32,959 nucleotides of DNA, from contig CAZYCY010000001.1 in assembly GCA_964646145.1 (NCBI GenBank), forward strand, positions 1 through 32,959, read 5' to 3'. This DNA is from an uncultured Thiotrichaceae bacterium. Lineage in GTDB: Bacteria; Pseudomonadota; Gammaproteobacteria; SZUA-229. The notes beneath the pieces are model-generated. The model was not told the origin of the DNA. It saw only the letters and a program-made list of their open reading frames with translations, and ran no database searches. Below are positions 3,483 to 17,583 of this stretch, piece by piece. Position numbers and translations under genes: made by a program. Each line of letters starts with the position of its first letter. Position 1 is the first letter of the stretch.

Positions 3483-3831
3483 CTGCGGTAATCAATTATT
3501 GATAAAACTATTCTACAACTAATGTAAAAATTGTCATACTGAAAAATTAGAAAGGGAACTACGCCATTAAACTCGGATTACTTATAAGAGCCAATAATTT
3601 TAATCTGGCAGCAGAGACATTGTGCTGTAAAATAAGACCATGGGAAACTTCTTCAGCATCAGCCGTCAGCACGAGTCCGCACATGCGGTAATAAACAATT
3701 GTGTACAATAACTCGAAACCAGCCCTGCCGAGGTGAATTTTGGCTTCCTCTATGCCACTCGCAGTATGCTGTGAAGAATGAAACCCTCAACGATTAATCA
3801 GAGATTCGCTAAAATATAAAAGGAGATGCAA

Positions 3832-4005
3832 ATGAAGACCATCATTAAATCAATCATCGTAGTATTGCTAACGACTCTGTCAATAACAGGCTGTTCCAGC
3901 AGCCCCGCACCGTTTAATGATCCATACAACCAGGCTGATTCTCAGAGAGATAGGTCGAAGCAAGCACAGCATGAATTGTCCACAGAAACATCCCGAGAGA
4001 GGTAG
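3832..4005 (+). CDS. Small (57-aa) lipoprotein, below the ORF-track cutoff
   Basis: My own translation gives MKTIIKSIIVVLLTTLSITGCSSSP.... It has a hydrophobic signal plus lipobox L-S-I-T-G-C. SD AAGGAG lies 7 nt upstream of the ATG. Confidence 0.55.
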   Translation: MKTIIKSIIVVLLTTLSITGCSSSPAPFNDPYNQADSQRDRSKQAQHELSTETSRER

Positions 4006-4135
4006 TGAAACACTAGCCCCCGAAGCAGGGCAATGGCATTCACTTAACCCATCTTTCGATTTAGCAGAAAGCAATTATATAAAAAAAACAAATAGTTACT
4101 AAATTTATGGAGTCGGAGTTGGCACTACAGATTCC

Positions 4136-4270
4136 ATTGTTCCCACGCTGCTCCCGCGTAGGAATACAACCACTGACGCTCTGCGTCTCGTTACATGCAA
4201 AAAACACACAACATAAGCGATTCTTGACGCGGAGCGTCTGAAAATTCATTCCCACGCAGAGCGTGGGAAT
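4136..4270. repeat. Cluster of four REP-like hairpins (A-B...B-A arrangement)
   Basis: Hairpins: ttcccacgct/cgcgtaggaa (4140..4164, imperfect), gacgc-tct-gcgtc (4175..4187), gacgc-gga-gcgtc (4226..4238), attcccacgc-aga-gcgtgggaat (4248..4270, perfect 10-bp stem). Confidence 0.55.
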
Positions 4271-4409
4271 GATAAATCAGTGAGTTATATGAGGTGTTTT
4301 ATTTTTTGTTTTTGTTGGGTATGTGAATGTCATTGCTTGCCGGGACGGGAGTCTCACCCGCTGGAATTATCGACCTTGCTCGCCGCACACCCCAATTATC
4401 TCCTAGTTT

Positions 4410-4439
4410 CTGATACTTGCCCCACGCCTTTTATATAAT
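4410..4439 (+). promoter_or_regulatory. Candidate sigma70 promoter for the plus-strand trio
   Basis: CTGATA (4410..4415), 18-nt spacer, perfect TATAAT (4434..4439), about 60 nt upstream of the 4500 ATG. The -35 element is weak. Confidence 0.25.
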
Positions 4440-4499
4440 GCCGGTAACAAGCTCACAAGCCTTGCAACTTTCCTTGTTTTTCAATAAATTAACAAGATT

Positions 4500-6392
4500 A
4501 TGGACTTTAGTGAATATAAAGCACTCGTCACCTCAATACCTTGCGGGAAAAAACTACCCGACTCTATTTATATTCACGAATCCGCAATTGACATCCTGCC
4601 TAGACAACTAGGTGCTCATTTCGCACGTGTAATAATAGATCTCGATTTAGATGATAAAGATTGGAATATCCTTAAATTCTTTAAGCGAGACCATAAAGTT
4701 GCACTGTTAAATTATCCTGGCTTCTTTGATGACAGTTACCCTGCACTGTATACAAGCTATACAATTGATCTTGAAAAGAAAACCTTTAGAAAAGCTAACT
4801 ACAATAAATCTGACAATCCGCCAATTCTGCACAGAAAAGAAACATTTCTAAAACCTGACCATCCGCTTGTTGCAGAATTTATAGAAATAACGCAGGAAGG
4901 TGAAGCTATAGGTCTCTATGAAAAAACAAGCCGAATTGGCTTTAAACAAAATTGGGAAAGGTTAATAAAATCTAAAGGATACTTTCTTGATAAACATGGT
5001 CGATTAAAACCATTAACTGAGAAACCGTTAGCTCAAACAAAACCATCAGATTTAAATGGTGATGTAGAACGACATAAAACAGCTATTGACCGTAATCAGC
5101 TATCACAGCCTATGCAGGCATTGACCAGGCATAATTATTTAAATGATGATTATAGTGTTCTCGATTATGGCTGTGGTAAGGGTGATGATGTTAGGGAATT
5201 AAAGGCACATGGAATTGATGTCACTGGCTGGGACCCTGTTCATAATCCCAACGAAGAATACTCTAACCGAGATATAGTGAATCTCGGCTTTGTGTTAAAT
5301 GTAATTGAAGACCGACAGGAACGGACAGAAACACTTATCAATGCATGGAAACATGCGGATAAAATTTTAGTTGTGGCGGTTATGGTTGCAGGTGAAAACG
5401 TCATTAGTCAATTTACACCATACAAAGATGGCGTTATAACCAGCAGAAATACATTTCAAAAATACTACTCTCAAGGTGAAATCCGTTACTACATCGAGAA
5501 TTCACTTGATGAAACGGCTATTGCAGTAGGCCAGGGTGTTTTTCTGATATTTAAAGACAAGCTCGAAGAACAAGCCTTTTTATCAGAACGTCAGCATATC
5601 AAACGTGATTGGTCACAAAAAATACAGCGCCAACTAGCACTTAAACCTAAAGCAATCAGAAAAGATGTCATTGATAAACATATCGAACTATTTACTGACT
5701 ACTGGGAAACCTCACTTGAATTAGGACGAATACCAGCAAATAATGAATTTGAATTCTCTGATCAAATACGCCGCATCTGTGGCTCACATAACAAAGCCCA
5801 CCAGGCATTACTTAAACATTTTGGTGAAGAAGTATTTATTGAATCCAAAGAAAAACGTAGAGAAGATCTCATCGTCTATTTTGCCTTAAGTCTTTTTGAA
5901 AAAAGGAAACCTCAAAGTAAAATGCCAGAAAATCTAAAACGAGATATCAAAGCTTTTTTTTCTTCATATCAACAGGCATTAGAAGAAGCACGAGAAATAT
6001 TATTCTCTGTGGGCAACCCAGTAACAATTAGTGAGGCGTGCAATGTTGCTTATAAAACACTAGGCTGTGGTCACATGGAAGATAGTCATAGCTTTACGTT
6101 TCATAAAGACAATTTAGGCGACCTTCCACCGGTACTTCGCATATATGTTGGATGCGCCACGCAACTATATGGCGATATCGATAATTTTCAACTTATTAAA
6201 GTACATATAAGATCTGGAAAGGTTAGCTTAATGCGGTATGATGATTGGTCAAAAAATGAACCACTACTCCTTGAGCGTATAAAAATCAAACTTAGAGAAC
6301 TAGATATTGATTTTTTCGAATACACAGGTAAGTATTTACCTCCACCATTAACTAACAAGTCATCATTTTTAAGTGGCGCATCAGAAACCTAA
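4500..6392 (+). CDS. DNA-phosphorothioation-associated putative methyltransferase-like protein (630 aa, three-part architecture)
   Basis: Central class-I SAM-binding motif VLDYGCGKGDDV with a downstream DIVNLGFVLNVIED block. The N-terminal region (PPILHRKETFLKPDHP...GLYEKT) is as I remember for the TIGRFAM dnd-related methyltransferase family. A ~270-aa C-terminal extension has unknown function. Confidence 0.7.
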   Translation: MDFSEYKALVTSIPCGKKLPDSIYIHESAIDILPRQLGAHFARVIIDLDLDDKDWNILKFFKRDHKVALLNYPGFFDDSYPALYTSYTIDLEKKTFRKANYNKSDNPPILHRKETFLKPDHPLVAEFIEITQEGEAIGLYEKTSRIGFKQNWERLIKSKGYFLDKHGRLKPLTEKPLAQTKPSDLNGDVERHKTAIDRNQLSQPMQALTRHNYLNDDYSVLDYGCGKGDDVRELKAHGIDVTGWDPVHNPNEEYSNRDIVNLGFVLNVIEDRQERTETLINAWKHADKILVVAVMVAGENVISQFTPYKDGVITSRNTFQKYYSQGEIRYYIENSLDETAIAVGQGVFLIFKDKLEEQAFLSERQHIKRDWSQKIQRQLALKPKAIRKDVIDKHIELFTDYWETSLELGRIPANNEFEFSDQIRRICGSHNKAHQALLKHFGEEVFIESKEKRREDLIVYFALSLFEKRKPQSKMPENLKRDIKAFFSSYQQALEEAREILFSVGNPVTISEACNVAYKTLGCGHMEDSHSFTFHKDNLGDLPPVLRIYVGCATQLYGDIDNFQLIKVHIRSGKVSLMRYDDWSKNEPLLLERIKIKLRELDIDFFEYTGKYLPPPLTNKSSFLSGASET

Positions 6393-6402
6393 GGAACCTA
6401 AT

Positions 6403-7224
6403 ATGAATAGCAATGGAACAGCCACACCTAAAAATGTCAAAGTAGGTATGCATGTTGAAATTAACCCTCAAACGGACCGTACAAGAAAAAAAATAGCCCC
6501 AGGGATAATATCAGAAATTTTAACTAAATCAAATAATCACCCTCATGGTGTATTAGTTCTACTTGAATCTGGTGAGAAAGGCAGAGTAAAAGCGATACTT
6601 GACCAGAATGGTAAAAACCAACATGCTGAAAACAAAACTGATCTAAAGGAAGAAAAAAACACCACTACTCTTAAAGAATATATAGCTGAAGGAGAAAATC
6701 ATCATGTTGAATTTAAATCTGGTGCTTTATGGAGCACTAAGTTTACAAATAATGATATAAAGAAGTACAAACCTCAATCAAATGAACTTCATGCATATGG
6801 TCAAAGCACGTCAAAGATTATAATTTCTAAAACACTTGCAGGATTTTTAAACACAGATGGTGGTACATTAATAATTGGGTTAAAAGAAAATAAAAATAAT
6901 AATAAAGACGAAGTTATTGGTATTGAAGTGGAGTTCGATAATTTGAAAGATCAATGCCAGGATGGCTATAGAAGAATGTTAGTTGATTTAATTAAAGACT
7001 ACTTCCCTTCTGATGTTTTCAACCACCTTAATCAATACCTACAAATTAGGTTCGAAAAAGTAAGTGGTAAAGTTATCTGTGGTGTTACTGCTTCTAGATC
7101 TGATCAGAGAGTATTTCTGAAACTTAAAAATGCTGATCATTTCTACATTAGAACAGATGCTTCTACTAGGGAACTGCATGGAGAAGAAATTCTTGATTAC
7201 TGTTTAAAACGATTTAATAAATAA
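6403..7224 (+). CDS. YwbE-like (DUF2196) N-terminal domain fused to an AlbA_2 (Schlafen-type) nucleic-acid-binding domain
   Basis: N-terminus GMHVEINPQTDRTRKKIAPGIISEILTKSNNHPHGVLVLLESGEKGRVKAIL matches the YwbE pattern. C-terminus has EGENHHVEFKSG and LAGFLNTDGGTLIIGL, the AlbA_2 signature. I place the start at ATG 6403 (SD AAGGA at 6391..6395) rather than the track's GTG 6373. Confidence 0.7.
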   Translation: MNSNGTATPKNVKVGMHVEINPQTDRTRKKIAPGIISEILTKSNNHPHGVLVLLESGEKGRVKAILDQNGKNQHAENKTDLKEEKNTTTLKEYIAEGENHHVEFKSGALWSTKFTNNDIKKYKPQSNELHAYGQSTSKIIISKTLAGFLNTDGGTLIIGLKENKNNNKDEVIGIEVEFDNLKDQCQDGYRRMLVDLIKDYFPSDVFNHLNQYLQIRFEKVSGKVICGVTASRSDQRVFLKLKNADHFYIRTDASTRELHGEEILDYCLKRFNK

Positions 7225-7273
7225 TATTTTATATTTTTACTACTAAAGCAGTCCGAGAATACTAGAGAAGCAT

Positions 7274-8260
7274 ATGTTATACAGAAACGGTGAAAATCTA
7301 AAAGAAGAGCTCATAAGATTTTTATCTAATAAAAAAAATGTAACTATTTTTTCACCCTATATTAAAGCAACAACATTGAACAAGTTATTGGAATCCACAG
7401 GCTTTAATTGCGAACAAATTATTGTACGATGGGAACCTATGGACCTAGCTCTAGGGTCGTCAGATATAGAAGTTTATAAAATATGTAAAGAGAATAACAT
7501 TGCCTTGTACATGAATAATCGTATACATCTCAAACTCTTCACAAACAATTTTAATGATGCCTTATTAGGGTCAGCCAATATCTCAGAGCGTGCAATAAGT
7601 GACAACACAAATCATTTTAACTATGAGGTATGCACTTATGTTCAATCCATTGATAGAGATGATCGTTTATATCTTCATAAAATAATTCATGAAAGTATTT
7701 TAGTAACAGATGATATTTACGATGCTATTGAAGCTCAAATTCCTGATATTTCTCCAGATATAAAAAATAAAAAACTTAAACTTCCAGCATCTACTAACGC
7801 AACATCAGACTTTCTCATTACAAAGTTACCAATGATAGACAACCCTACTCTGTTTTGGGAATTGTATTCTGGAAAGTTAGATATTGAATCTGAAGAACAA
7901 GAAAACTGTCTCTGTCACGATCTATCACTTTATGAAATTAATACACTGGAATGTAATAAAAGAGAATTTTTTGAAATCTTATCCAGAAACTTCTTTAGCT
8001 TACCATTCATTAACGCTTTTTTAGAAGAAATAGATAAATCAAAACGTAACACAAGGAGTGGTGAAGCAAGGGATGGGTTACAATTTGGCGCTGTAAGGAA
8101 ATGGTTCTCTAATAATACGACTTCTGTACCATCACCCAGACCATTTGAATTAACAAAAAATGTACAAATACTTTATTCTTGGATAGAGCACTTATCTAAT
8201 GGGAAATACACCATCTCTATACCAGGATCGCATTCACAGATTATAAAAAAAACGTACTAG
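7274..8260 (+). CDS. Single-HKD phospholipase-D-superfamily (Nuc/BfiI-like) putative nuclease with an unknown C-terminal domain
   Basis: 328 aa. RIHLKLFTNNFNDALLGSANIS equals H-x-K-x4-(N instead of D)-x6-G-S-x-N. Residues ~150-328 carry no motif I recognise. Confidence 0.65.
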   Translation: MLYRNGENLKEELIRFLSNKKNVTIFSPYIKATTLNKLLESTGFNCEQIIVRWEPMDLALGSSDIEVYKICKENNIALYMNNRIHLKLFTNNFNDALLGSANISERAISDNTNHFNYEVCTYVQSIDRDDRLYLHKIIHESILVTDDIYDAIEAQIPDISPDIKNKKLKLPASTNATSDFLITKLPMIDNPTLFWELYSGKLDIESEEQENCLCHDLSLYEINTLECNKREFFEILSRNFFSLPFINAFLEEIDKSKRNTRSGEARDGLQFGAVRKWFSNNTTSVPSPRPFELTKNVQILYSWIEHLSNGKYTISIPGSHSQIIKKTY

Positions 8261-10032
8261 CAATCACCCACACCTAAAAAATCAGTTAAAACCTCACCCC
8301 ATCGCCGTCTAGCATTTTGGTATTGAGCCCTTGCGTTTGACGAACTTTCAGCTTCCATGCGAGACCACGCTGCTATAGCAAGCTCCAACATTCCTTGTTG
8401 CTCTTCACCAACCTCATGAATTATTTTCCCATAAAAAGGGTGATTCTTATTGATCTGAACTAATGTAAAACCATTCTGACTTGTCACATCAAAAAAAGCT
8501 GAGGAATCAAAAGCAAGTTCTTCAATTTTATATCTTAAACCACTTTGCAAGATTTCTTCTGGTGTAGGCATAGACTCTCTTTGTTTATCACCATGGCCAT
8601 GCTCAAGTACAGATTTTATATCATCTAATGTTGGTACCGTGTCGTCTGAAGATATAGGGTTCTTATCTGCTCTAGCAGAGTCTGCTTCAGTAGCTGCATT
8701 TTCAACAGAACTACCACCATCGCCTCCCTGCTTTTCTTTGGAAAAATTTGAGAAGTCGAGAAGATTCAATGGTTTTCTCAATGAATCAATTACAAAACCA
8801 ACCTTATTTATTATCTTAAAAAGATGTATTTTAGGATCATTATTAAATTTCAAATCATCCTCATATTCTCCTACTGACAAGCCTTCTCTTTCTGCTTCTT
8901 CATCTTTTTGTAAATTATAAAAATTCACAGCTGACTGTTTATTATTTAGCACACCGAAGACTATATCTAATGCTGGAGGAAATGACACTTCAATTGAAAT
9001 AAACCTACCTTTATCCCTAAGTTCAGTAATAAAAAATCCAGCATCCTTGAGCTCTAACTCTCTATTAGATCTAACAATTGACAGTCCAAAATTAGTCGCA
9101 GCGTGTTTTCCCCAGACAGTTCCTCCTGGTCTTTGCTTCGCTTCCTCCCTTATTCTTTTAAAAATTAATGGGTTAACTACAGAGCCTTTTATCTTCACTT
9201 CATGCATCCCATTATTAAATTCAATTTTAATGGTTTCTTCTTTTTCTAGATTGAAAAATGGCTCGTTTTCATAAGGATGTGGAAGCTTTGAAAGTGATGT
9301 ATTCGTTAAAAGATACATCGGGTCGTTTGCTTTAAACTTTTTAGGATTATCTTCTAGTTTATAAACATTATCAATTTCTAAAAATCGGTCGAACCATATA
9401 GTGGCATCGCCGCTGTCTAGGTAATATCTATACATGCGCCCTATTAACGCTTCAGAGTGCTTGTATATTGACGCGCTTGTTTTCCACTGTAAGCGATCTA
9501 AATTACTCCATAATATAAAAGTTCCACTTTTAGAAAGCTTATCTCCTAGCGTTTCCAAAATAGCAGAGGGAATTTCGTTTGTTTTTGGTTTTGGAATGCT
9601 TTCAAGGTTACCATTCATCATTTCATTAATATCTAGGTACGTATAGAAGATTTCGTCTACGTTTATCCACGACCACACTTCTACTTTTGTACATTGTGAT
9701 ATTGATGAATTTGGTAATCCCATGCCAAATTTACCCATACCTTCTTTATCTGTATGATTTTCTCCTGCACCAAACTCCAACGCTTTATAAAGCTGATCAG
9801 GACTCATTCCTGAGCCGTTATCTAGAATGCCTATTTTATCTATTAATTTTAATGCTCGTTGTTTATTAGCCTTTGATACAGTCTCATAACATATGAGTCT
9901 TACTATTTCTGCACCTGCTTGAATGCTATTATCGATCAACTCCGCTATTGCATATGCTGCATTTTTATAGCCATTATCACGTAATGATTCTATTACTACC
10001 TGACCACTTATAAATGGGCGTGAATTTGTCAT
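8257..10032 (-). CDS. GHKL-superfamily (HATPase_c_3 / MORC-like) ATPase
   Basis: 591 aa. N-box AELIDNSIQAGA, G1 box LDNGSGMS, G2 box GKFGMGLPNSS. It lies 20 nt downstream of the helicase gene on the same strand. Confidence 0.8.
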   Translation of the reverse strand: MTNSRPFISGQVVIESLRDNGYKNAAYAIAELIDNSIQAGAEIVRLICYETVSKANKQRALKLIDKIGILDNGSGMSPDQLYKALEFGAGENHTDKEGMGKFGMGLPNSSISQCTKVEVWSWINVDEIFYTYLDINEMMNGNLESIPKPKTNEIPSAILETLGDKLSKSGTFILWSNLDRLQWKTSASIYKHSEALIGRMYRYYLDSGDATIWFDRFLEIDNVYKLEDNPKKFKANDPMYLLTNTSLSKLPHPYENEPFFNLEKEETIKIEFNNGMHEVKIKGSVVNPLIFKRIREEAKQRPGGTVWGKHAATNFGLSIVRSNRELELKDAGFFITELRDKGRFISIEVSFPPALDIVFGVLNNKQSAVNFYNLQKDEEAEREGLSVGEYEDDLKFNNDPKIHLFKIINKVGFVIDSLRKPLNLLDFSNFSKEKQGGDGGSSVENAATEADSARADKNPISSDDTVPTLDDIKSVLEHGHGDKQRESMPTPEEILQSGLRYKIEELAFDSSAFFDVTSQNGFTLVQINKNHPFYGKIIHEVGEEQQGMLELAIAAWSRMEAESSSNARAQYQNARRRWGEVLTDFLGVGDC

Positions 10033-10052
10033 TTTTTATCCATATTATTCAA

Positions 10053-11663
10053 TTAAACTTCATTCCAAGATTGGTTCCAATATTCGAATGCATTACTTAA
10101 ATTCATAAACTCTGGAATATTATCTACAACTGTATATATATTACAACTATAATTGCCCCCACTCTCTTTTCCTCTCATAGCTCTCCCTACCATTTGAGAA
10201 TACAAAACAAGTGATGTTGTAGGCCTCCCAACAATTGCAACATTAGTAATTGGAGCGTCAAATCCTGCTGTTAGAACGCCATAATTAACAATGATTTTTA
10301 ACTTTCCATTTTTAAAGTCTGATATTTTTGATCTGCGCGATTCTGTCGTATCATATCGACTATCCAGCGAACTTGCAGGACATCCTAAACAGCATAAAGC
10401 AGCAGCTAATTCTCTTGAATTATCCACACTACATGCAAATATTATTATCGTACTACCATTATTATATTCCTTAATTGCTTGTTTAATGATACTTGAGTTT
10501 CTATCTTCGTTCTTCCCTAGTGTCTTTAACAAGCTAGCTTCATCTAGACCAGAAACACTCTCTCCTAAAGAAACCTGACCTTCATAATTAATTGGATAAA
10601 AACTGGGGTTAGCTAAATATTTATTTTCAATTAAATACCTAACAGGTGATTGATACCCTTTTACTTTCATAGTTACTTTGGTACGAGAAAATAGTTCAGA
10701 TAATTCATAATTCTCAGTGCCATCATCATTAAAGGTCCTACCTGGTGTTGCAGTTAAACCCAAAACAAATGCATTTTTTTCAGTGCCACTAGATAATTCA
10801 TCCAGTGTAGTTCTGTACGTGGGAGCTAGTGCTTTATGAGCCTCGTCAAATATTATTAAGGTAACATTGTTTTGTATTTTTTCAAATAAAAATTTTCTAT
10901 CTGTTTTTTTTAGGCTATGAATTCTTTGTAATCCTGCAACTAAAAAACCATTTTTTATTCCACTCAACGATTTTTTTGAGTCAGAAAAAAAAGAATAATT
11001 ATTTATATTTCTATTTCCAAGCTTACCCCAAGCAATATCAAACTCTTCGGATGCCTGTGTACACAATTCTTCTGAGTCAGCCAGCCAAATAACTAAACCG
11101 TCTTTATTACGCCTTAAATGCTCGCAGACCACATTAAGTGCTGTACGTGTTTTTCCTGCACCTGTAGGCAAATGAATTAAAGCTCGATTTGTTTTATCAC
11201 TATTAATTAAATCTATAGTCTTGTTCGAAACTTTAACCTGATAATCATACAGTGGGTAATCGGGAACAATTGGCTTTACATCAGAAATTGATACACTCGC
11301 TAAAGCAGCGGCATCCCACTGCTCACCCATACCCATTATCTGAGAGAATTTTTTCGTATAGTTTTTTGCTAATACTTTTAGACTTTCATATTTTTGCAGT
11401 TGTTCTATATTTGATAAATCCACATCTTTGTCAAATTCATAAAACACCTCATTGAGTTGCTGAATTGTCATTCGCGAAATGATCAAATTTCTGTATTCAC
11501 TATTTTTGATTAAGTCGATACCCACTGTTAATAAAACTGCAATACTTAAATTTCGAATGTCTAAGTTATTTTCAGTTATTTCTCTTGCAAATCTTAGAGT
11601 TTTCGAACCTAATATATTTCCAAGTTCCGCTTCGCTACAGTTTTCTAAAATATTTTTTATCAT
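10053..11663 (-). CDS. SF2 DEAH-box helicase (type III restriction Res-like core)
   Basis: 536 aa. Motif I HLPTGAGKTRTA, motif II IIFDEAHKA, motif III LTATPGR, motif VI QMVGRAMRG. Confidence 0.85.
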   Translation of the reverse strand: MIKNILENCSEAELGNILGSKTLRFAREITENNLDIRNLSIAVLLTVGIDLIKNSEYRNLIISRMTIQQLNEVFYEFDKDVDLSNIEQLQKYESLKVLAKNYTKKFSQIMGMGEQWDAAALASVSISDVKPIVPDYPLYDYQVKVSNKTIDLINSDKTNRALIHLPTGAGKTRTALNVVCEHLRRNKDGLVIWLADSEELCTQASEEFDIAWGKLGNRNINNYSFFSDSKKSLSGIKNGFLVAGLQRIHSLKKTDRKFLFEKIQNNVTLIIFDEAHKALAPTYRTTLDELSSGTEKNAFVLGLTATPGRTFNDDGTENYELSELFSRTKVTMKVKGYQSPVRYLIENKYLANPSFYPINYEGQVSLGESVSGLDEASLLKTLGKNEDRNSSIIKQAIKEYNNGSTIIIFACSVDNSRELAAALCCLGCPASSLDSRYDTTESRRSKISDFKNGKLKIIVNYGVLTAGFDAPITNVAIVGRPTTSLVLYSQMVGRAMRGKESGGNYSCNIYTVVDNIPEFMNLSNAFEYWNQSWNEV

Positions 11664-11683
11664 TATATTAGTGAATTAAGCCA

Positions 11684-12541
11684 TTATAAACTACAAATCA
11701 AACAAGCTTGATCTTCAGGGTCTTCATCATCTTCTTGATGCCTTAACACATCCTGCCATCTTTCAGTTTTTTTACTTGTTTTATTAATGTCTGTTTTCTC
11801 TCTCAACTCTGCTCTTTTAACAAGCTCATCTAAAGACCCTTGAGAGCTCCAGGTATACCCATGACCACCAAATTCCACCTCACCCTCTTTCCAGTCGAAT
11901 TTCGTTCGTATTTTATTCTCAAATTCTTTTGCTTTCTCAAATAATTCAGGATGGTTTCGTTTAAGACCTAACCATTCTTTTTGCTGTTGGAAAAAGCAGA
12001 AATAACAACCAGATCGTGATCGCCATTTATAGTATTTTGGAATGCCAACTGTATCTTCAAGCATCTGGAATATATCATCACGTACTAGACCATCTTCTAC
12101 AAAAGGGAAAACTGCTTTTATTGTTGGTTTTTGACTAATGTAACCTTCTCGATTTTCATCTGCACGTATGCCGACATAAGTAATAACAAAGTCATCCCCT
12201 ACAAATTCCTCAAAGGGTTTAATTTTCATCATTCGAGTACACCATCTTTGCTGTGGTGATGGCAAGTATTCATTATGAACCTTTAGCCAATGCTCAAATG
12301 GTTTTCCACTACTGAGTCTTATAATCTCTTTACCTAAATATGCTTCAAGCTTTGCTAGAAATTCATATACCTCATCTAATTCAGCGCCCGTATCAGTAAA
12401 GAAGTATTCAACCTTTTCATGAACGTCAGGATGTTGTTCTTTGATATAAATAGCTAAGGCTGCACTATCTTTACCACCAGATATTCCTAAAACATGTCGA
12501 TATTGATTATCGTTTATATACTTTTTATAATTCTGGCTCAT
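11684..12541 (-). CDS. sspD: SspD-like PP-loop ATP pyrophosphatase (PAPS-reductase family)
   Basis: 285 aa. PP-loop ISGGKDSAA. Cys pairs SGCYFCFF and C-terminal CLICSL. Its short length fits SspD rather than ~500-aa DndC. It follows sspC after 6 nt. Confidence 0.8.
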   Translation of the reverse strand: MSQNYKKYINDNQYRHVLGISGGKDSAALAIYIKEQHPDVHEKVEYFFTDTGAELDEVYEFLAKLEAYLGKEIIRLSSGKPFEHWLKVHNEYLPSPQQRWCTRMMKIKPFEEFVGDDFVITYVGIRADENREGYISQKPTIKAVFPFVEDGLVRDDIFQMLEDTVGIPKYYKWRSRSGCYFCFFQQQKEWLGLKRNHPELFEKAKEFENKIRTKFDWKEGEVEFGGHGYTWSSQGSLDELVKRAELREKTDINKTSKKTERWQDVLRHQEDDEDPEDQACLICSL

Positions 12542-12547
12542 ATCTTG

Positions 12548-15500
12548 TTACCTACTAACTAATGATTTTGATTGTAGTTTTTCAGGTTTATTTTTTTGAG
12601 TAACTTGTTCTCCCCTGTATTCAGTTAAAAACTTATTAACAGATTCTGCTAATACAGCCAGCATGATTTCTTTATCTGGAAGTTCTTTAAGTACGTCTGA
12701 TATGTCTTTATTAGCCTTATTTCTCAGCTTAATACTTTCTTGGTCTGCGATAGCAATTTCATCTTGAATTGCTCCACCCTTTTTAATGCTACGCAGCAAA
12801 TATACATCAAAGTCACCATTTTTCTTTATCGCACAATCTTTTTCATGTAGCCTAAGTTTTTCTAGATCAATTATACGTTGCGAAAAATCTGCTAAACGAT
12901 ATTCAGCTGTATCTTGATCGCTATCTAACCATTTTTTAGATGGCTTATTACCTAAGAACATAAGTATATTTTCGAACCATTCTTCATCTGTACTAGAGGA
13001 TTTAATTATTCGCATGATAAATGCACGCAAGCCTTGCATATCAATTGTGTAGTTTTCTAAACCATAACAATTTCCTGCCAGTCTTTTTCTAATATCTCCT
13101 AACGACAGCTTAGAATTTATGTTAAATGCATGTGCAATCAGCTCTTTTTGTTTATTTAAAAGATTGTGATATGAATCTTTTAACTCCTTCAGTGTTTCAG
13201 TCAAGGTTTGTGAAAACTCCTCCAGTTTATTGTTACTCAAGCTTGAATTAATAACATTGAAACCAAGTTTTTCTGGCAACTGTTCAAATAATAATATTTC
13301 AGGAGACTTCGCTAAATCAAAAGCGGCTCTTACTTTTATAGCTTTTTGAGATAACCCTCTTCTAGTCTTTTGTGTATATTCAGGTAACTTTCCCATAAAT
13401 ACTGCAAGTGGTCTGGCTAATTCCAGCAGAGTGCGTTTTTTGCTATCCCCATGTAAAACTTTTGAATATTGTTTAAATATTGAAGCGCGTAATCCAGTTA
13501 TTCGAAACCGCTGAATCTCAAACTCATCAGGCCGTTTAACAAAACGCTCAATCATCTCTTCAGTAAAATATGGTTTATACCTTCCTTGTTCGTAAACCGC
13601 GAGTTCGTGCTGATAGACTAAATAGGCTGTTATATAAAAAACGGGTAATAAACCGGCTTTAACACCATAGGGCGGCGCTAATAATTCGGCATTTAATTGG
13701 GTAAAAGATTTAGCTTGTTTTTCAGTGCTATCAAGAAACTCGTCAATACATTGCCAGACATGACGAAGATTTGATTTTTTATCTTTTCTACCATCTGTTG
13801 GTGGCGCACAAAGATTCCATGTTTCGTCGCCATCCGTTATTTTATCAATTATTAACTGATGCAAACCTGTTTCGCGTAATACAGATCGGTACATTGATTT
13901 TTCAGCGGGGAATTTTTCTATACCTAAATCTGCTTTTGTTGCATGGTTTTGCATTGCATATAACAGCTTGTTACGCGCAGCATTGGCTTGTGCAGAAGGT
14001 TTATCTCGGTTGATCAGTTCATTAAAGACTTTCGGCATTTTGTTATAGACTTTACCAAGAACGCTTGAAAGCATTTCTTGCATGGTTCGCTTACTGGTTA
14101 TTTCTAATTTTTTTCCGCTGTGATACCAAATGCTATCAGCGGGTGAATCGATCAAACTTTTTAATAGTTTACCTTCTGCTTGTTCTGCAGCCGTTAACCG
14201 ATCTTCAAATTCACGCTTAGCGACTGGGTCGCTATTGAGCTCCTGGCTATTTATTCTGACGCGATTTAACGCTATGGTTTCCGCTACGGCTTCCCTTAAC
14301 TGCGCTCCATTAAGACTTAAAGCGGTTATATCCAGATTTGAGAAATAGTTAATTACATCTGTATGAAATATTTTCTCGTCATCCTGGTCTGCCGCCAGGT
14401 AGAAGATGATGCGTGCATCTTTACTTTGTTTTTCTGTCGTTTTGTAATTTTTTGCATCAACAAAAACAGGCACAAAATACCTTAATGCACCTGTTTGAAT
14501 GGTGTATTTACGAGCAACAACTGGCAGCATGTTTTTGGCTGTATTCAATTCTGCTGCCAGGGAGAACTGACCGATATTATTTATTTCTTCCTGCAATGCC
14601 TCTTCTAGATCAAAATCACTGCCCTGCCATACGCGGTATTCGTTGTTAAAGCGTCGATAATTGATGATGGATTTATCTTGCAGTGCTTTGATTGCGTTCC
14701 TTGCTGTTATTTTCTTAGGTAAGCAGGTTTCCAGTATGGCTTTAGATGCTTTAAAACCACCTTTGCTACCGATAATATTTAGGATGCCAATGGTTTTGAG
14801 AATATTAACTTCGTCTTCGCATGCATCACCTAGACGCTCAATAGCGGTTACTACTTCTGCCCAGCGCCGATGGGTTAAATAGTCACCTAATACTGATGGT
14901 TGGTTAGTAATAAAATAATCGTAGATATGATGTGGGTAAACATAATCTCCAAAGTTATCCATCTCATGCAGCATATGCTGTAAGCCAAACTCTTCATGAC
15001 TACCAAGATAGCTAAATATGGTGCGCTCGTTTTGCGCTACTTTCTGGCAGAGTAATGGCAATATAAGCGCACTAACGGGATGCAATGGATAACAGTTTGA
15101 ATACAGTTCCACTGCCTCGTCAAATTTCAACGCACTGGGCATGGCTTGTTGTTTGACTAATACATCGACTACTTTTGTAGTTATATTTGTCAGCGTATTT
15201 TTTTGTTGTTTAGTAAGGTTAAATTCAAATGCTGCTGATACAACACGTAATATTTGTTCGGCAGATTCCAGAAAAGGCACTTCTTCAAAACGCCCCTGCA
15301 CTTTAGACCATTCATTTTTTAGATTTTCACCTAGACCTTTTGCGTATTGCTCAAATGATTGATGCAGTAGTACAAATAAGAAAAGATTAACCTTACTGCC
15401 TTTACAGGCATGTTCAGCAAGTGCCTGTAATAAATATATATCGTTAGCACCGTAATGGCGTGCTTCGTATTCTAAAAATTTGCCAAGTTCATCTATTACT

Positions 15501-16072
15501 AATAGTATGCCTTTGCAGTGTGTTTTTTCTAGAAGCAGTTGAAGTTTTATAAACAGTTGTATCAGTTCATTTGATGAAACATTACTTGTTGCAGCTTGCT
15601 TTATTTCTTTAATGATTTTTGGTTTTCTACTTGGTATGTTTTCCCAATATGCCTCTGCTGCATCGGCTAAACCTTTAACCAATCTCTTTGACAATGATTC
15701 AGGTGAACCAGTAATGAGAACTTTTAAATAGCCCTGATTTTTATTGGTTTGGTTGCAGAATTTTTTCGCTAATAATTCATCTGCCTTTTTTAGTACTTGC
15801 TGTGCTGCTTGCGAGCCTTCTTCAGAAGGGTTAGATAATAGTTGCGATAAAAATACTGAAAAAGAGGATTTACCTGAACCGTATGGGCCGATTAAAGACC
15901 AGGCTCTAGGTGATAGGCCAGTATTAAACGCATCAGACACACGTGCAAAGGTTCTAAGTGCCCTGGACGTAGGGATGTATGCATTAATAACATCAACTGA
16001 ACCAGCATCCCGTTCGAGGTTAATTGAACGAGTGTAGTGTGTATTGACTGTAACGAGATTATTTATGTTCAT
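12548..16072 (-). CDS. sspC: SspC-like large P-loop ATPase
   Basis: 1174 aa. Walker A GPYGSGKSS, Walker B LLVIDELGKF. Its start overlaps the sspB stop by 4 nt (ATGA type). Confidence 0.75.
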   Translation of the reverse strand: MNINNLVTVNTHYTRSINLERDAGSVDVINAYIPTSRALRTFARVSDAFNTGLSPRAWSLIGPYGSGKSSFSVFLSQLLSNPSEEGSQAAQQVLKKADELLAKKFCNQTNKNQGYLKVLITGSPESLSKRLVKGLADAAEAYWENIPSRKPKIIKEIKQAATSNVSSNELIQLFIKLQLLLEKTHCKGILLVIDELGKFLEYEARHYGANDIYLLQALAEHACKGSKVNLFLFVLLHQSFEQYAKGLGENLKNEWSKVQGRFEEVPFLESAEQILRVVSAAFEFNLTKQQKNTLTNITTKVVDVLVKQQAMPSALKFDEAVELYSNCYPLHPVSALILPLLCQKVAQNERTIFSYLGSHEEFGLQHMLHEMDNFGDYVYPHHIYDYFITNQPSVLGDYLTHRRWAEVVTAIERLGDACEDEVNILKTIGILNIIGSKGGFKASKAILETCLPKKITARNAIKALQDKSIINYRRFNNEYRVWQGSDFDLEEALQEEINNIGQFSLAAELNTAKNMLPVVARKYTIQTGALRYFVPVFVDAKNYKTTEKQSKDARIIFYLAADQDDEKIFHTDVINYFSNLDITALSLNGAQLREAVAETIALNRVRINSQELNSDPVAKREFEDRLTAAEQAEGKLLKSLIDSPADSIWYHSGKKLEITSKRTMQEMLSSVLGKVYNKMPKVFNELINRDKPSAQANAARNKLLYAMQNHATKADLGIEKFPAEKSMYRSVLRETGLHQLIIDKITDGDETWNLCAPPTDGRKDKKSNLRHVWQCIDEFLDSTEKQAKSFTQLNAELLAPPYGVKAGLLPVFYITAYLVYQHELAVYEQGRYKPYFTEEMIERFVKRPDEFEIQRFRITGLRASIFKQYSKVLHGDSKKRTLLELARPLAVFMGKLPEYTQKTRRGLSQKAIKVRAAFDLAKSPEILLFEQLPEKLGFNVINSSLSNNKLEEFSQTLTETLKELKDSYHNLLNKQKELIAHAFNINSKLSLGDIRKRLAGNCYGLENYTIDMQGLRAFIMRIIKSSSTDEEWFENILMFLGNKPSKKWLDSDQDTAEYRLADFSQRIIDLEKLRLHEKDCAIKKNGDFDVYLLRSIKKGGAIQDEIAIADQESIKLRNKANKDISDVLKELPDKEIMLAVLAESVNKFLTEYRGEQVTQKNKPEKLQSKSLVSR

Positions 16073-16995
16073 GCGGCTATACCTTTCTCTAAGTCCATAT
16101 AATATTTTTTAATATAAGATAGCGGTTCTATTTCATTGGTTCGATACAATTGATGTATGCCCGCTGTTTCTCGTATATCAAAATGTCCGGGGATATAATT
16201 CACCATTAATTCTAGTTTGGTAATTAAGTCTGTTTCCGTTAACCTGAAAACGGAACCTGGTGCTGCATAGTCGTTTCGGCTATACATGAGTTCTTCAATG
16301 GCTATGGTCATAATATTTCTCTGCTGCATTAATTGAGATACCGCAAAAGAAAATATTCCGACTGGCAAGCCTGATCTTGCTTCTGGTTTTGACTGGTATG
16401 TTCGAGCACTCGAAAACTGTGTGACCAGACCAAGTAAAGATAGTGGTGAGTCTAACGCTTCTTCCAACGCTATACGGGCGTTAGCTTTTGACTGCGTATA
16501 CATACGTGGCAGTAATAAGGCATCATTTTTAATGGTATTCGCTGAGGGCCGACGTTTTTCTACGACACGCTCTTTAATAAAGTCGATAAGTGCTGTTTGT
16601 AATTCTTCAGCGGTAAATTCTGGTTTGTGAAATTTATTAAAAAACCAAAACCACGATGTTGCCATTGCTGAGTTAGTGACTAATAACCAGTGTACTAACC
16701 AAATAGTCGCTTCATCTTCTAAATAAGGGTCTAAGCCAGTTTTTGCATCAAAGACTAAATTACCAATTGGTTCTGCAACCTCTGGTTTTTGAGAGCTTAT
16801 TAACTGGCATGCTCTTAACCAGTAGCGTATTGACGACACCATGTTACGACCGACTCCAAGCACAACCACAGAATCGTCATCTTCAAATACACCCGGTTTT
16901 TGTTTTAAGGCATGGAAACCTTTAGATAGCCAGCTATAGCGAAGTGCAAATGTTTCGTGCCGACCGAATGCAACGGTATCGCTTTTAAATTTCAT
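16069..16995 (-). CDS. sspB: SspB-like DUF4007 protein (PT-system nickase family)
   Basis: 308 aa. The N-terminus FGRHETFALRYSWLSKGF is the hallmark DUF4007 block. Its ATG directly abuts the stop of the upstream RHH gene (TAAATG). Confidence 0.8.
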   Translation of the reverse strand: MKFKSDTVAFGRHETFALRYSWLSKGFHALKQKPGVFEDDDSVVVLGVGRNMVSSIRYWLRACQLISSQKPEVAEPIGNLVFDAKTGLDPYLEDEATIWLVHWLLVTNSAMATSWFWFFNKFHKPEFTAEELQTALIDFIKERVVEKRRPSANTIKNDALLLPRMYTQSKANARIALEEALDSPLSLLGLVTQFSSARTYQSKPEARSGLPVGIFSFAVSQLMQQRNIMTIAIEELMYSRNDYAAPGSVFRLTETDLITKLELMVNYIPGHFDIRETAGIHQLYRTNEIEPLSYIKKYYMDLEKGIAA

Positions 16996-17290: not shown

Positions 17291-17583
17291 GTAGCTTCTC
17301 AATAAGCAGGGGCTGCCCCAATGCCAGTAAGTTAAGAAGAATATAGCTCTTTTACTGTTATCTCGAACGAATGTGAGAGATCTTAATCCCCATACAATAA
17401 GATTTCTCCCTATGGTCGAGTAGTGGTACAGGGATGTACCGTTAATGAACCAGTAGTGGCACATGGATGTGGCGATTACGAACCAAAGGATGGAGAGGAT
17501 GGAGAGGATGGAGAGGATGGAGAGGATGGAAATGACAATACAGATTAGGCATTGGTGACAGCCCCGACTTATTGAGAAGCTAT
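17291..17583. mobile_element. Long (293-bp) member of the hairpin-MITE family
   Basis: ~35-nt imperfect terminal inverted repeats gtagcttctcaataagcaggggctgccccaatgcc / ggcattggtgacagccccgacttattgagaagctat. The interior has small hairpins (ggtacagggatgtacc, gtggcacatggatgtggc) and a 9-bp tandem repeat. Flanks (ttttaccg / atttcacc) are only a degenerate duplication. Confidence 0.6.
17487..17531. repeat. 9-bp tandem repeat AGGATGGAG x4 plus one variant (AGGATGGAA)
   Basis: Direct reading. It explains the artefactual SILSILSIL stretch in the minus-strand ORF 17285..17641. Confidence 0.9.

Follow-up and report, generated by a model that had tools for sequence, protein, structure and literature searches.

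SspABCD makes phosphorothioate (PT) marks in DNA, and two kinds of restriction partner have been described for it, SspE and SspFGH. They each go with about 7% of sspBCD clusters, 83.9% of the clusters have neither and further partners have been proposed (PMC8092258). Independently, operons of MORC or paraMORC ATPases with superfamily II (SFII) helicases and nucleases were predicted in 2008 to be restriction-modification systems, tied to methylases (Iyer, Abhiman and Aravind, PMC2292703). Here we analyze a stretch of 32,959 nucleotides from an uncultured Thiotrichaceae bacterium (contig CAZYCY010000001.1), called the window below, where sspBCD adjoin genes for a superfamily 2 (SF2) helicase, a MORC-like ATPase and a phospholipase D (PLD)-family protein. 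These three enzymes constitute a conserved effector cassette that is a dedicated genomic partner of SspBCD(A), and the two together are most likely a PT-based restriction-modification system distinct from SspE and SspFGH.

The SspABCD-SspE system has the same modification module, and both effectors co-reside in the ssp locus of Vibrio cyclitrophicus FF75. However, SspE is a single DUF262/GmrSD-type NTPase-nickase that is not homologous to any of the three cassette proteins. They have none of the DUF262/GmrSD_N and C-terminal nuclease domains of SspE, while the control, the sspE product of the FF75 locus, matches the PADLOC SspE model over its whole length with E=0. SspFGH resembles the cassette as a three-gene effector beside sspBCD that can stack with other effectors and is thought to damage DNA without PT (PMC8092258). 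Its SspF is a Walker A protein and its SspH is FtsK-like, though, and they are unrelated to the cassette proteins. The initial annotation had called the set possibly SspFGH-like, and this part did not survive. None of the three proteins resembles the PADLOC SspE, SspF or SspG models or gave an SspH match, and the same library detects true SspF (3e-237) and SspG (6e-219) in an Agrobacterium tumefaciens plasmid locus. A Pfam scan of the island genes at 4500-16995 found no FtsK domain, the motor in the window being an SF2 helicase.

The cassette belongs in kind to the class predicted in 2008. In both, a GHKL+S5 ATPase adjoins a Rad25/ResIII-type SFII helicase and a nuclease, possibly of the HKD fold, and the distribution is sporadic and laterally mobile. 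The S5 motif of the cassette ATPase comes near to the MORC signature. Several taxa abbreviated in the figure legends of PMC2292703 (Anabaena variabilis, Vibrio cholerae and Psychrobacter) also have members of the family, an overlap that is suggestive only. The differences are that Ssp was unknown then and the operons were not connected with PT, that the cassette encodes the HKD nuclease as a protein by itself, extended by a conserved C-terminal domain, and that the partner is SspBCD(A).

The three enzymes in the window

The ssp genes and the cassette are arranged in the window as follows.

16069..16995, minus strand: sspB, the DUF4007 nickase/DNA-binding subunit of PT modification (Pfam DUF4007 3e-79; PADLOC SspB 2e-87)
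12548..16072, minus strand: sspC, a BrxC-like ATPase of the modification module (PADLOC SspC E=0, 1481 bits, full length)
11684..12541, minus strand: sspD, a PAPS-reductase-like ATP pyrophosphatase (PADLOC SspD 7e-104; Pfam PAPS_reduct)
10053..11663, minus strand: SF2 (ResIII/Rad25-type) helicase/translocase of 536 amino acids (aa), the first cassette gene (Pfam and PDB matches)
8257..10032, minus strand: MORC-like GHKL+S5 ATPase of 591 aa (HATPase_c_3 2e-19; profile and fold matches)
7274..8260, plus strand: single-HKD PLD-family nuclease, the predicted third component, convergent to the ATPase gene (model and motif)

The helicase translation has PTGAGKT, FDEAH, LTATPGR and QMVGRAMR, and of 74 family members at least 95% retain motifs I, II, III and VI. 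Pfam finds ResIII (3e-24), DEAD (3.5e-14) and Helicase_C (1e-10) in it but no match in its N-terminal domain of ~135 aa. Among proteins of solved structure, it comes closest in sequence to RadD (1e-20) and to SauUSI, a type IV restriction enzyme (PDB 7clg, 4.5e-14).

The ATPase has AELIDNS, LDNGSGM and MGKFGMG. Its profile best matches MORC2 (4e-5) among the PDB sequences, and also SMCHD1. The structure model has a predicted local distance difference test score (pLDDT) of 83, and its fold matches MORC2/3/4, the N-terminal fragment of MutL (LN40) and the N and M domains of Hsp90 over 370-490 aligned columns. By this model, the protein is a GHKL domain followed by an S5 transducer domain. The four ATP-binding motifs of GHKL (E31/N35, D71-G75, G100-G105 and T171) are invariant in a 22-sequence alignment. 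In a wider set of 86 members, the N-box, G1 and G2 core residues E31, D34, N35, D71, G75, G100, F102, G103 and G105 are kept in 82-85 members and G73 in 77, and K365 is near-invariant (82-85). The S5 segment G316-LSIVRSNREL fits 10 of the 11 positions of the MORC signature GhXhhpXXRhl, with E325 at a hydrophobic position, and G316, R321, R324 and E325 are kept in 83-84 of the 86.

The C-terminal region of the ATPase is helical, has no Pfam match and ends in a module of ~90 aa (residues ~500-590; window 8257-8560) with the pattern hFDV...N-x-x-H-x-F...AW. Its N528 and H531 are present in all 86 members. Accessory proteins whose genes lie between those of the ATPase and the PLD, a 585-aa protein in FF75 and a 233-aa protein in Atlantibacter, end in the same module but are otherwise unrelated (L088:13330-13622 and L081:12280-12583 in our locus set). 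It may serve for docking or dimerization.

No nuclease domain was detected in the helicase or the ATPase by the domain scans, as the initial annotation had noted from the letters. The nuclease candidate is the PLD protein, which has a single HxK...GSxN motif (H85, K87, S100 and N102). These four residues and E118 are present in all 55 members. Sequence searches are nearly silent on it: Pfam PLDc_2 scores 18.6 against a gathering threshold of 27, and the family profile has nothing significant among the PDB sequences, the relatives being found via fold search only. In the model (pLDDT 86.7), the N-terminal domain (residues 1 to ~140) has the nuclease domain of SauUSI as its best fold match, followed by BfiI, Zucchini, Nuc and NucT, all with a Foldseek probability of 1.00. 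The model thus places it in the Nuc/BfiI/SauUSI-type PLD nuclease fold. The C-terminal half (residues ~145-328) is conserved, modeled as mostly helical with short hairpins, and has no Pfam match.

The Dnd-linked PbeA/TIGR04095 enzymes and SauUSI combine the same chemistry of a PLD nuclease and a ResIII-type helicase in a single chain. The earlier suggestion that the cassette is a split version of such a fusion holds for the modules, as the helicase resembles SauUSI in sequence and the PLD model has it as the top fold match, and PbeA and TIGR04095 give weak partial matches. It does not hold for the family. The helicase scores 56 bits against the TIGR04095 cutoff of 600, covering model positions 22-186 only, and the PLD protein is encoded by a separate gene and gives no match; PbeA membership is likewise rejected. 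In contrast to the fused HKD-SF2 enzymes, the modules here come from two separate genes that flank the gene of a MORC-like ATPase, and there is no DUF3427 reader domain. Moreover, the Dnd-linked fusions partner with DndCDE/CxC-ABC, whereas the partner of the cassette is Ssp.

Two other systems come near, though membership of either was rejected. DISARM shares the logic of a helicase, a PLD nuclease and a DNA modification, but its modification is methyl instead of PT, and the cassette has a GHKL ATPase in place of DrmA/DrmB. No match to DrmA or DrmB (DUF1998) was found, and the similarity to the DrmC PLD is weak. The N-terminal GHKL domain of the ATPase resembles MzaB (1e-16), reaching 60 bits against the NCBIfam cutoff of 850 and over residues 13-240 only, while Z1/MzaD and the other Mza partners are absent here. 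None of the three proteins is covered by a model in PADLOC 2023 or NCBIfam 2026.

On the minus strand, sspB, sspC, sspD, the helicase gene and the ATPase gene run in this order. The sspD-helicase gap (11664-11683) and the helicase-ATPase gap (10033-10052) are each exactly 20 nucleotides (nt), so the order, strand, spacing and motifs first described for this run all stand. Co-transcription of the two cassette genes with sspBCD, also proposed then, is plausible. No terminator-like site was found between the genes, and the sspD-helicase gap has a single promoter-like match. The promoter and terminator scans are overall not above chance and are therefore uninformative on the operon question.

The ATPase and PLD genes converge, and their stop codons have a CTAG palindrome in common at 8257-8260, with no spacer or terminator between the gene ends. 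Transcription of either gene would hence continue antisense into the other one, which suggests mutual transcriptional interference.

Association with SspBCD across genomes

The ATPase family is large. When 1.84 billion representative proteins were searched with its profile, 969 clusters (50% identity) were obtained at E<=1e-30. When one genome per species was scanned with an alignment of ATPase homologues, at least 564 species were found to encode a relative. We took the best 80 of these with 10-kb flanks and examined their open reading frames (ORFs) by tblastn and iterated profiles. The 80 genomes span Gammaproteobacteria, Cyanobacteria, Bacteroidota, Chloroflexota, Planctomycetota and a metagenome-assembled genome of Nitrosopumilus. 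At 49 loci the flanks reach at least 8 kb on both sides (full-flank loci). The ORF starts are longest-ORF guesses, so the gap sizes below are approximate.

The gene order is well kept. At 71 of 76 evaluable loci, the gene immediately upstream of the ATPase gene on the same strand is that of the helicase (median gap -4 nt). A PLD of the window type (~310 aa) is present at 55 of the 80 loci, and at 46 it is directly downstream of the ATPase gene and co-directional with it (median gap 5.5 nt). At three loci of Nostoc and related cyanobacteria (L060, L075 and L078), a small HNH protein of 148 aa replaces the PLD between the ATPase gene and sspA. With the helicase at 71/76, the PLD at 55/80 and the HNH at 3, the cassette has the composition of the predicted MORC, SFII helicase and nuclease operons. 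The cysteine desulfurase gene sspA is often next after the PLD, at a median gap of 5 nt.

The convergent PLD gene of the window is hence a minority layout, found otherwise at L001, L006, L012 and L090. The initial annotation had put the nuclease under separate transcriptional control, which fits this layout but not the 46 with a co-directional PLD gene close behind the ATPase gene.

SspBCD lies within 10 kb of the cassette at 42 of the 49 full-flank loci. With a PLD or HNH gene present it is found at 38 of 38, and with no nuclease gene at 4 of 11 (Fisher 3.8e-6, from non-independent samples). The ssp genes may be co-linear with, divergent from or convergent to the cassette, and the SspC proteins near it fall into at least two lineages, ~25% and 30-82% identical to the window SspC. 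The three-component set tied to sspBCD, foreseen from the window, is thus borne out by its recurrence with sspBCD in other genomes. The effector genes are genetically coupled to PT-modification genes, as is characteristic of the PT-based restriction-modification class.

Among 72,556 plasmid records, 98 have SspB, 18 have the ATPase family and at least 14 have both. The cassette is accordingly with at least 14 of the 98 SspB-bearing records, compared with the share of about 7% each for sspE and sspFGH in PMC8092258, although the datasets differ and the comparison gives scale only. The cassette is widespread and a strong candidate for a restriction partner of sspBCD clusters that have neither.

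In V. cyclitrophicus FF75, the strain where Ssp was defined, the locus begins with sspE and continues with sspD-sspC-sspB on the opposite strand. Next come the helicase, the ATPase, the 585-aa protein, the PLD and sspA (348 aa), followed by a TIGR04096-like gene. The cysteine desulfurase of this locus is identical to PDB 6M4J (FF75 SspA) except for the engineered C314S, so the cassette separates sspB from the validated sspA. For the earlier experiments, sspBCD and sspA of FF75 were amplified separately, and plasmids with SspABCD only gave PT in E. coli (PMC7188994). Hence, the cassette is not required for modification. As it appears to have gone unrecognized within the reference locus, earlier phenotypes measured in FF75 itself may include its contribution.

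The same layout is found in Atlantibacter, in Acinetobacter (other than A. baumannii) and on plasmid A of Anabaena variabilis ATCC 29413. RefSeq annotates the latter as a DUF4007 protein, a hypothetical protein, a PAPS reductase family protein, two hypothetical proteins and DndB, followed by a DEAD/DEAH box helicase, an ATP-binding protein, a phospholipase D family protein and a cysteine desulfurase. A DndB/DGQHR-like protein (~770 aa) lies between sspD and the helicase gene at L083 (5863-8169) and at L042, L053, L059 and L071, cyanobacterial and other loci. At L034, L056, L063, L070 and L073 (Chloroflexota, Microcoleus and Nostoc), the helicase and ATPase genes stand with neither a nuclease gene nor Ssp within 10 kb. 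In 5,426 complete E. coli genomes, the Atlantibacter cassette DNA had no match in near or distant search modes.

Effector modules appear to stack. On the Agrobacterium tumefaciens plasmid (L084, 5705-18982), sspF, sspG and an FtsK-domain (sspH-like) gene come directly after a divergent helicase-ATPase pair and a 359-aa endonuclease-like gene, with SspB ~16 kb away on the same plasmid. Beside the Atlantibacter cassette (L081, 16631-21836) are an HNH enzyme with a ScoMcrA-type sulfur-binding domain (SBD) and a GmrSD-type gene, which make it a PT-centered defense island.

A 'missing nuclease' was reported for the Ssp of Acinetobacter baumannii global clone 2 (PMC12421847). The cassette is not supported for this role, there being no A. 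baumannii cluster in the 120 best homologues of a Psychrobacter member. In A. baumannii VB1190 (L091, 19049-23303), two genes are convergent to sspBCD, one for a 637-aa protein that Pfam does not match and one for a 'sensor histidine kinase' of 779 aa. The latter consists of HATPase_c_3, HEF_HK and HATPase_c, a paraMORC-type two-component-like protein, and so a different GHKL family adjoins Ssp there. It may bear on the missing nuclease.

Favored and rival explanations

We favor restriction by the cassette with the classical polarity, where PT protects the host, because loci that lack SspBCD have lost the nuclease gene as well and because sspA often follows the nuclease gene in the same transcript. 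Single-HKD nucleases must dimerize, with two HKD halves per active site, and MORC, MutL and Hsp90 are ATP-gated dimers. The helicase would move the complex along DNA, and the MORC-like dimer, gated by ATP, would clamp or loop the DNA and thereby couple translocation to the assembly of a PLD dimer. DNA without the host PT marks would be nicked or cut, and the marks on the host DNA would stop or disarm the complex. This scheme draws on what is established for type I and III and SauUSI-type enzymes, single-HKD nucleases and the MORC/MutL/Hsp90 dimers.

Several points weigh against this explanation. Restriction, complex formation and PT dependence are what we infer for every member. No PT-reading domain was identified, and Pfam on the accessory domains gave nothing. 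In the window, sspA was not found among the ORFs scanned. The 80 loci are the best matches of one query and phylogenetically non-independent, so the statistics overstate the significance. No PLD is detectable at 25 of the 80 loci, and neither Ssp nor a nuclease gene at 7 of the 49 full-flank loci. Therefore, the helicase-ATPase pair can persist alone, and such pairs may be remnants or may have a second role. No link of MORC, helicase and nuclease to Ssp was found in the PT and Ssp literature (including the 2024 Dnd reappraisal and the 2026 BREX survey), in the MORC literature or in the TIGRFAM names; Xiong et al. 2020, outside the search, may mention the FF75 genes.

Could the cassette instead serve the modification itself? 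The helicase and ATPase, with the PLD, would then open DNA for the SspB nickase, choose the strand or site, or repair nicks and PT damage in a MutL/UvrD-like way. In many genomes a single operon does hold the cassette genes flanked by sspBCD and sspA, the ATPase has a MutL-like GHKL+S5 fold, and the PLD is missing from the 25 loci above. Nevertheless, the FF75 plasmids made PT without the cassette (PMC7188994), some helicase-ATPase pairs have no Ssp genes within 10 kb, and the helicase and PLD are nearest to the restriction enzymes SauUSI, BfiI, HsdR and PbeA. The slot after the ATPase gene can hold a PLD or an HNH, nucleases with unrelated folds, and this pattern is that of a restriction module. 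Taken together, a role in modification or its upkeep is quite improbable. It is unlikely too, if a shade less so, that the cassette is an autonomous system, MORC-type restriction-like or type IV, that acts independently of PT and has no more than its defense islands in common with Ssp. Such operons are known beside methylases or with no modification gene (PMC2292703), the seven full-flank loci have no Ssp, and Ssp islands do hold other systems such as the GmrSD and ScoMcrA-like SBD-HNH genes of L081. Mere co-residence, however, sits poorly with the operonic linkage, where sspA comes last in the cassette operon and the cassette is sandwiched within the ssp genes. The nuclease gene is always with SspBCD at the full-flank loci, the linkage holds across two divergent SspC lineages and three gene orientations, and the enrichment on plasmids is strong.

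The polarity could also be the reverse, the host PT switching on the ATPases and nuclease against phage DNA and the cassette being harmless without PT. SspE works so in the same kind of locus (PMC9646914, PMC8092258). Moreover, the modified share of CCA sites in FF75 is only ~14% (PMC9646914), a level that simple protection by PT does not readily explain. The loss of the nuclease gene where SspBCD is absent and the place of sspA downstream of the nuclease in the same operon rather fit a danger without modification, though not decisively, and translocase-nucleases of such build (type I/III and SauUSI-like) act on the DNA they travel on. We regard a PT-activated effector as very unlikely.

Returning to protection by PT, we consider a more specific and rather doubtful version of it, that the SF2-driven MORC clamp reads PT by distance. 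The motor would be reset at each PT, and the PLD would be licensed only after a long PT-free run. If true, this would explain the safety of the hosts with ~14% of sites modified, and would make the cassette a main missing restriction partner of the ~84% of sspBCD clusters without sspE or sspFGH, including a second effector in FF75. More generally, with restriction by the cassette, a MORC-type ATPase would for the first time be seen to cooperate with a modification of the DNA backbone. It would offer an experimentally tractable bacterial model for the cooperation of MORC clamps with helicases and nucleases, and would bear on the self/non-self discrimination under partial modification.

Accessory genes and the island

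Two more plus-strand genes precede the PLD gene in the window.

4500..6392, plus strand: TIGR04096 'DNA phosphorothioation-associated putative methyltransferase', a recurrent accessory (NCBIfam 8e-187, 622 bits against a cutoff of 150)
6373..7224, plus strand: DUF2196 + AlbA_2 (Schlafen-type) protein, an occasional accessory of the cassette (Pfam)

With the PLD gene, they form a trio oriented toward the ssp-helicase-ATPase operon. TIGR04096 relatives are present at 17 of the 80 loci, and the N-terminus of the window protein has no Pfam match. The DUF2196 + AlbA_2 gene is found also at L001 and at L089, where it is co-directional between the ATPase gene and a PLD gene whose product is 54% identical to that of the window. 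Since L089 has both genes co-directional after the ATPase gene, the window layout looks like an inversion of that block.

The block at ~4.4-17 kb has a G+C content of 31-40%, against 42-46% in the flanks, and is bounded by mutS and a gene for an aldo/keto reductase. The block is an island that was probably acquired laterally. Neither a neighboring tRNA nor a clear integrase was seen, and the tRNA gene and Rfam scans of the window were both empty. The stretch at 3483-4499 (~1 kb) has no ORF longer than 64 aa. Just upstream of the ssp operon, the sspB-mutS intergenic region has tandem repeats at 17419-17530, a 33-nt unit in two copies and then a perfect 9-nt unit, AGGATGGAG, in 4.9 copies.

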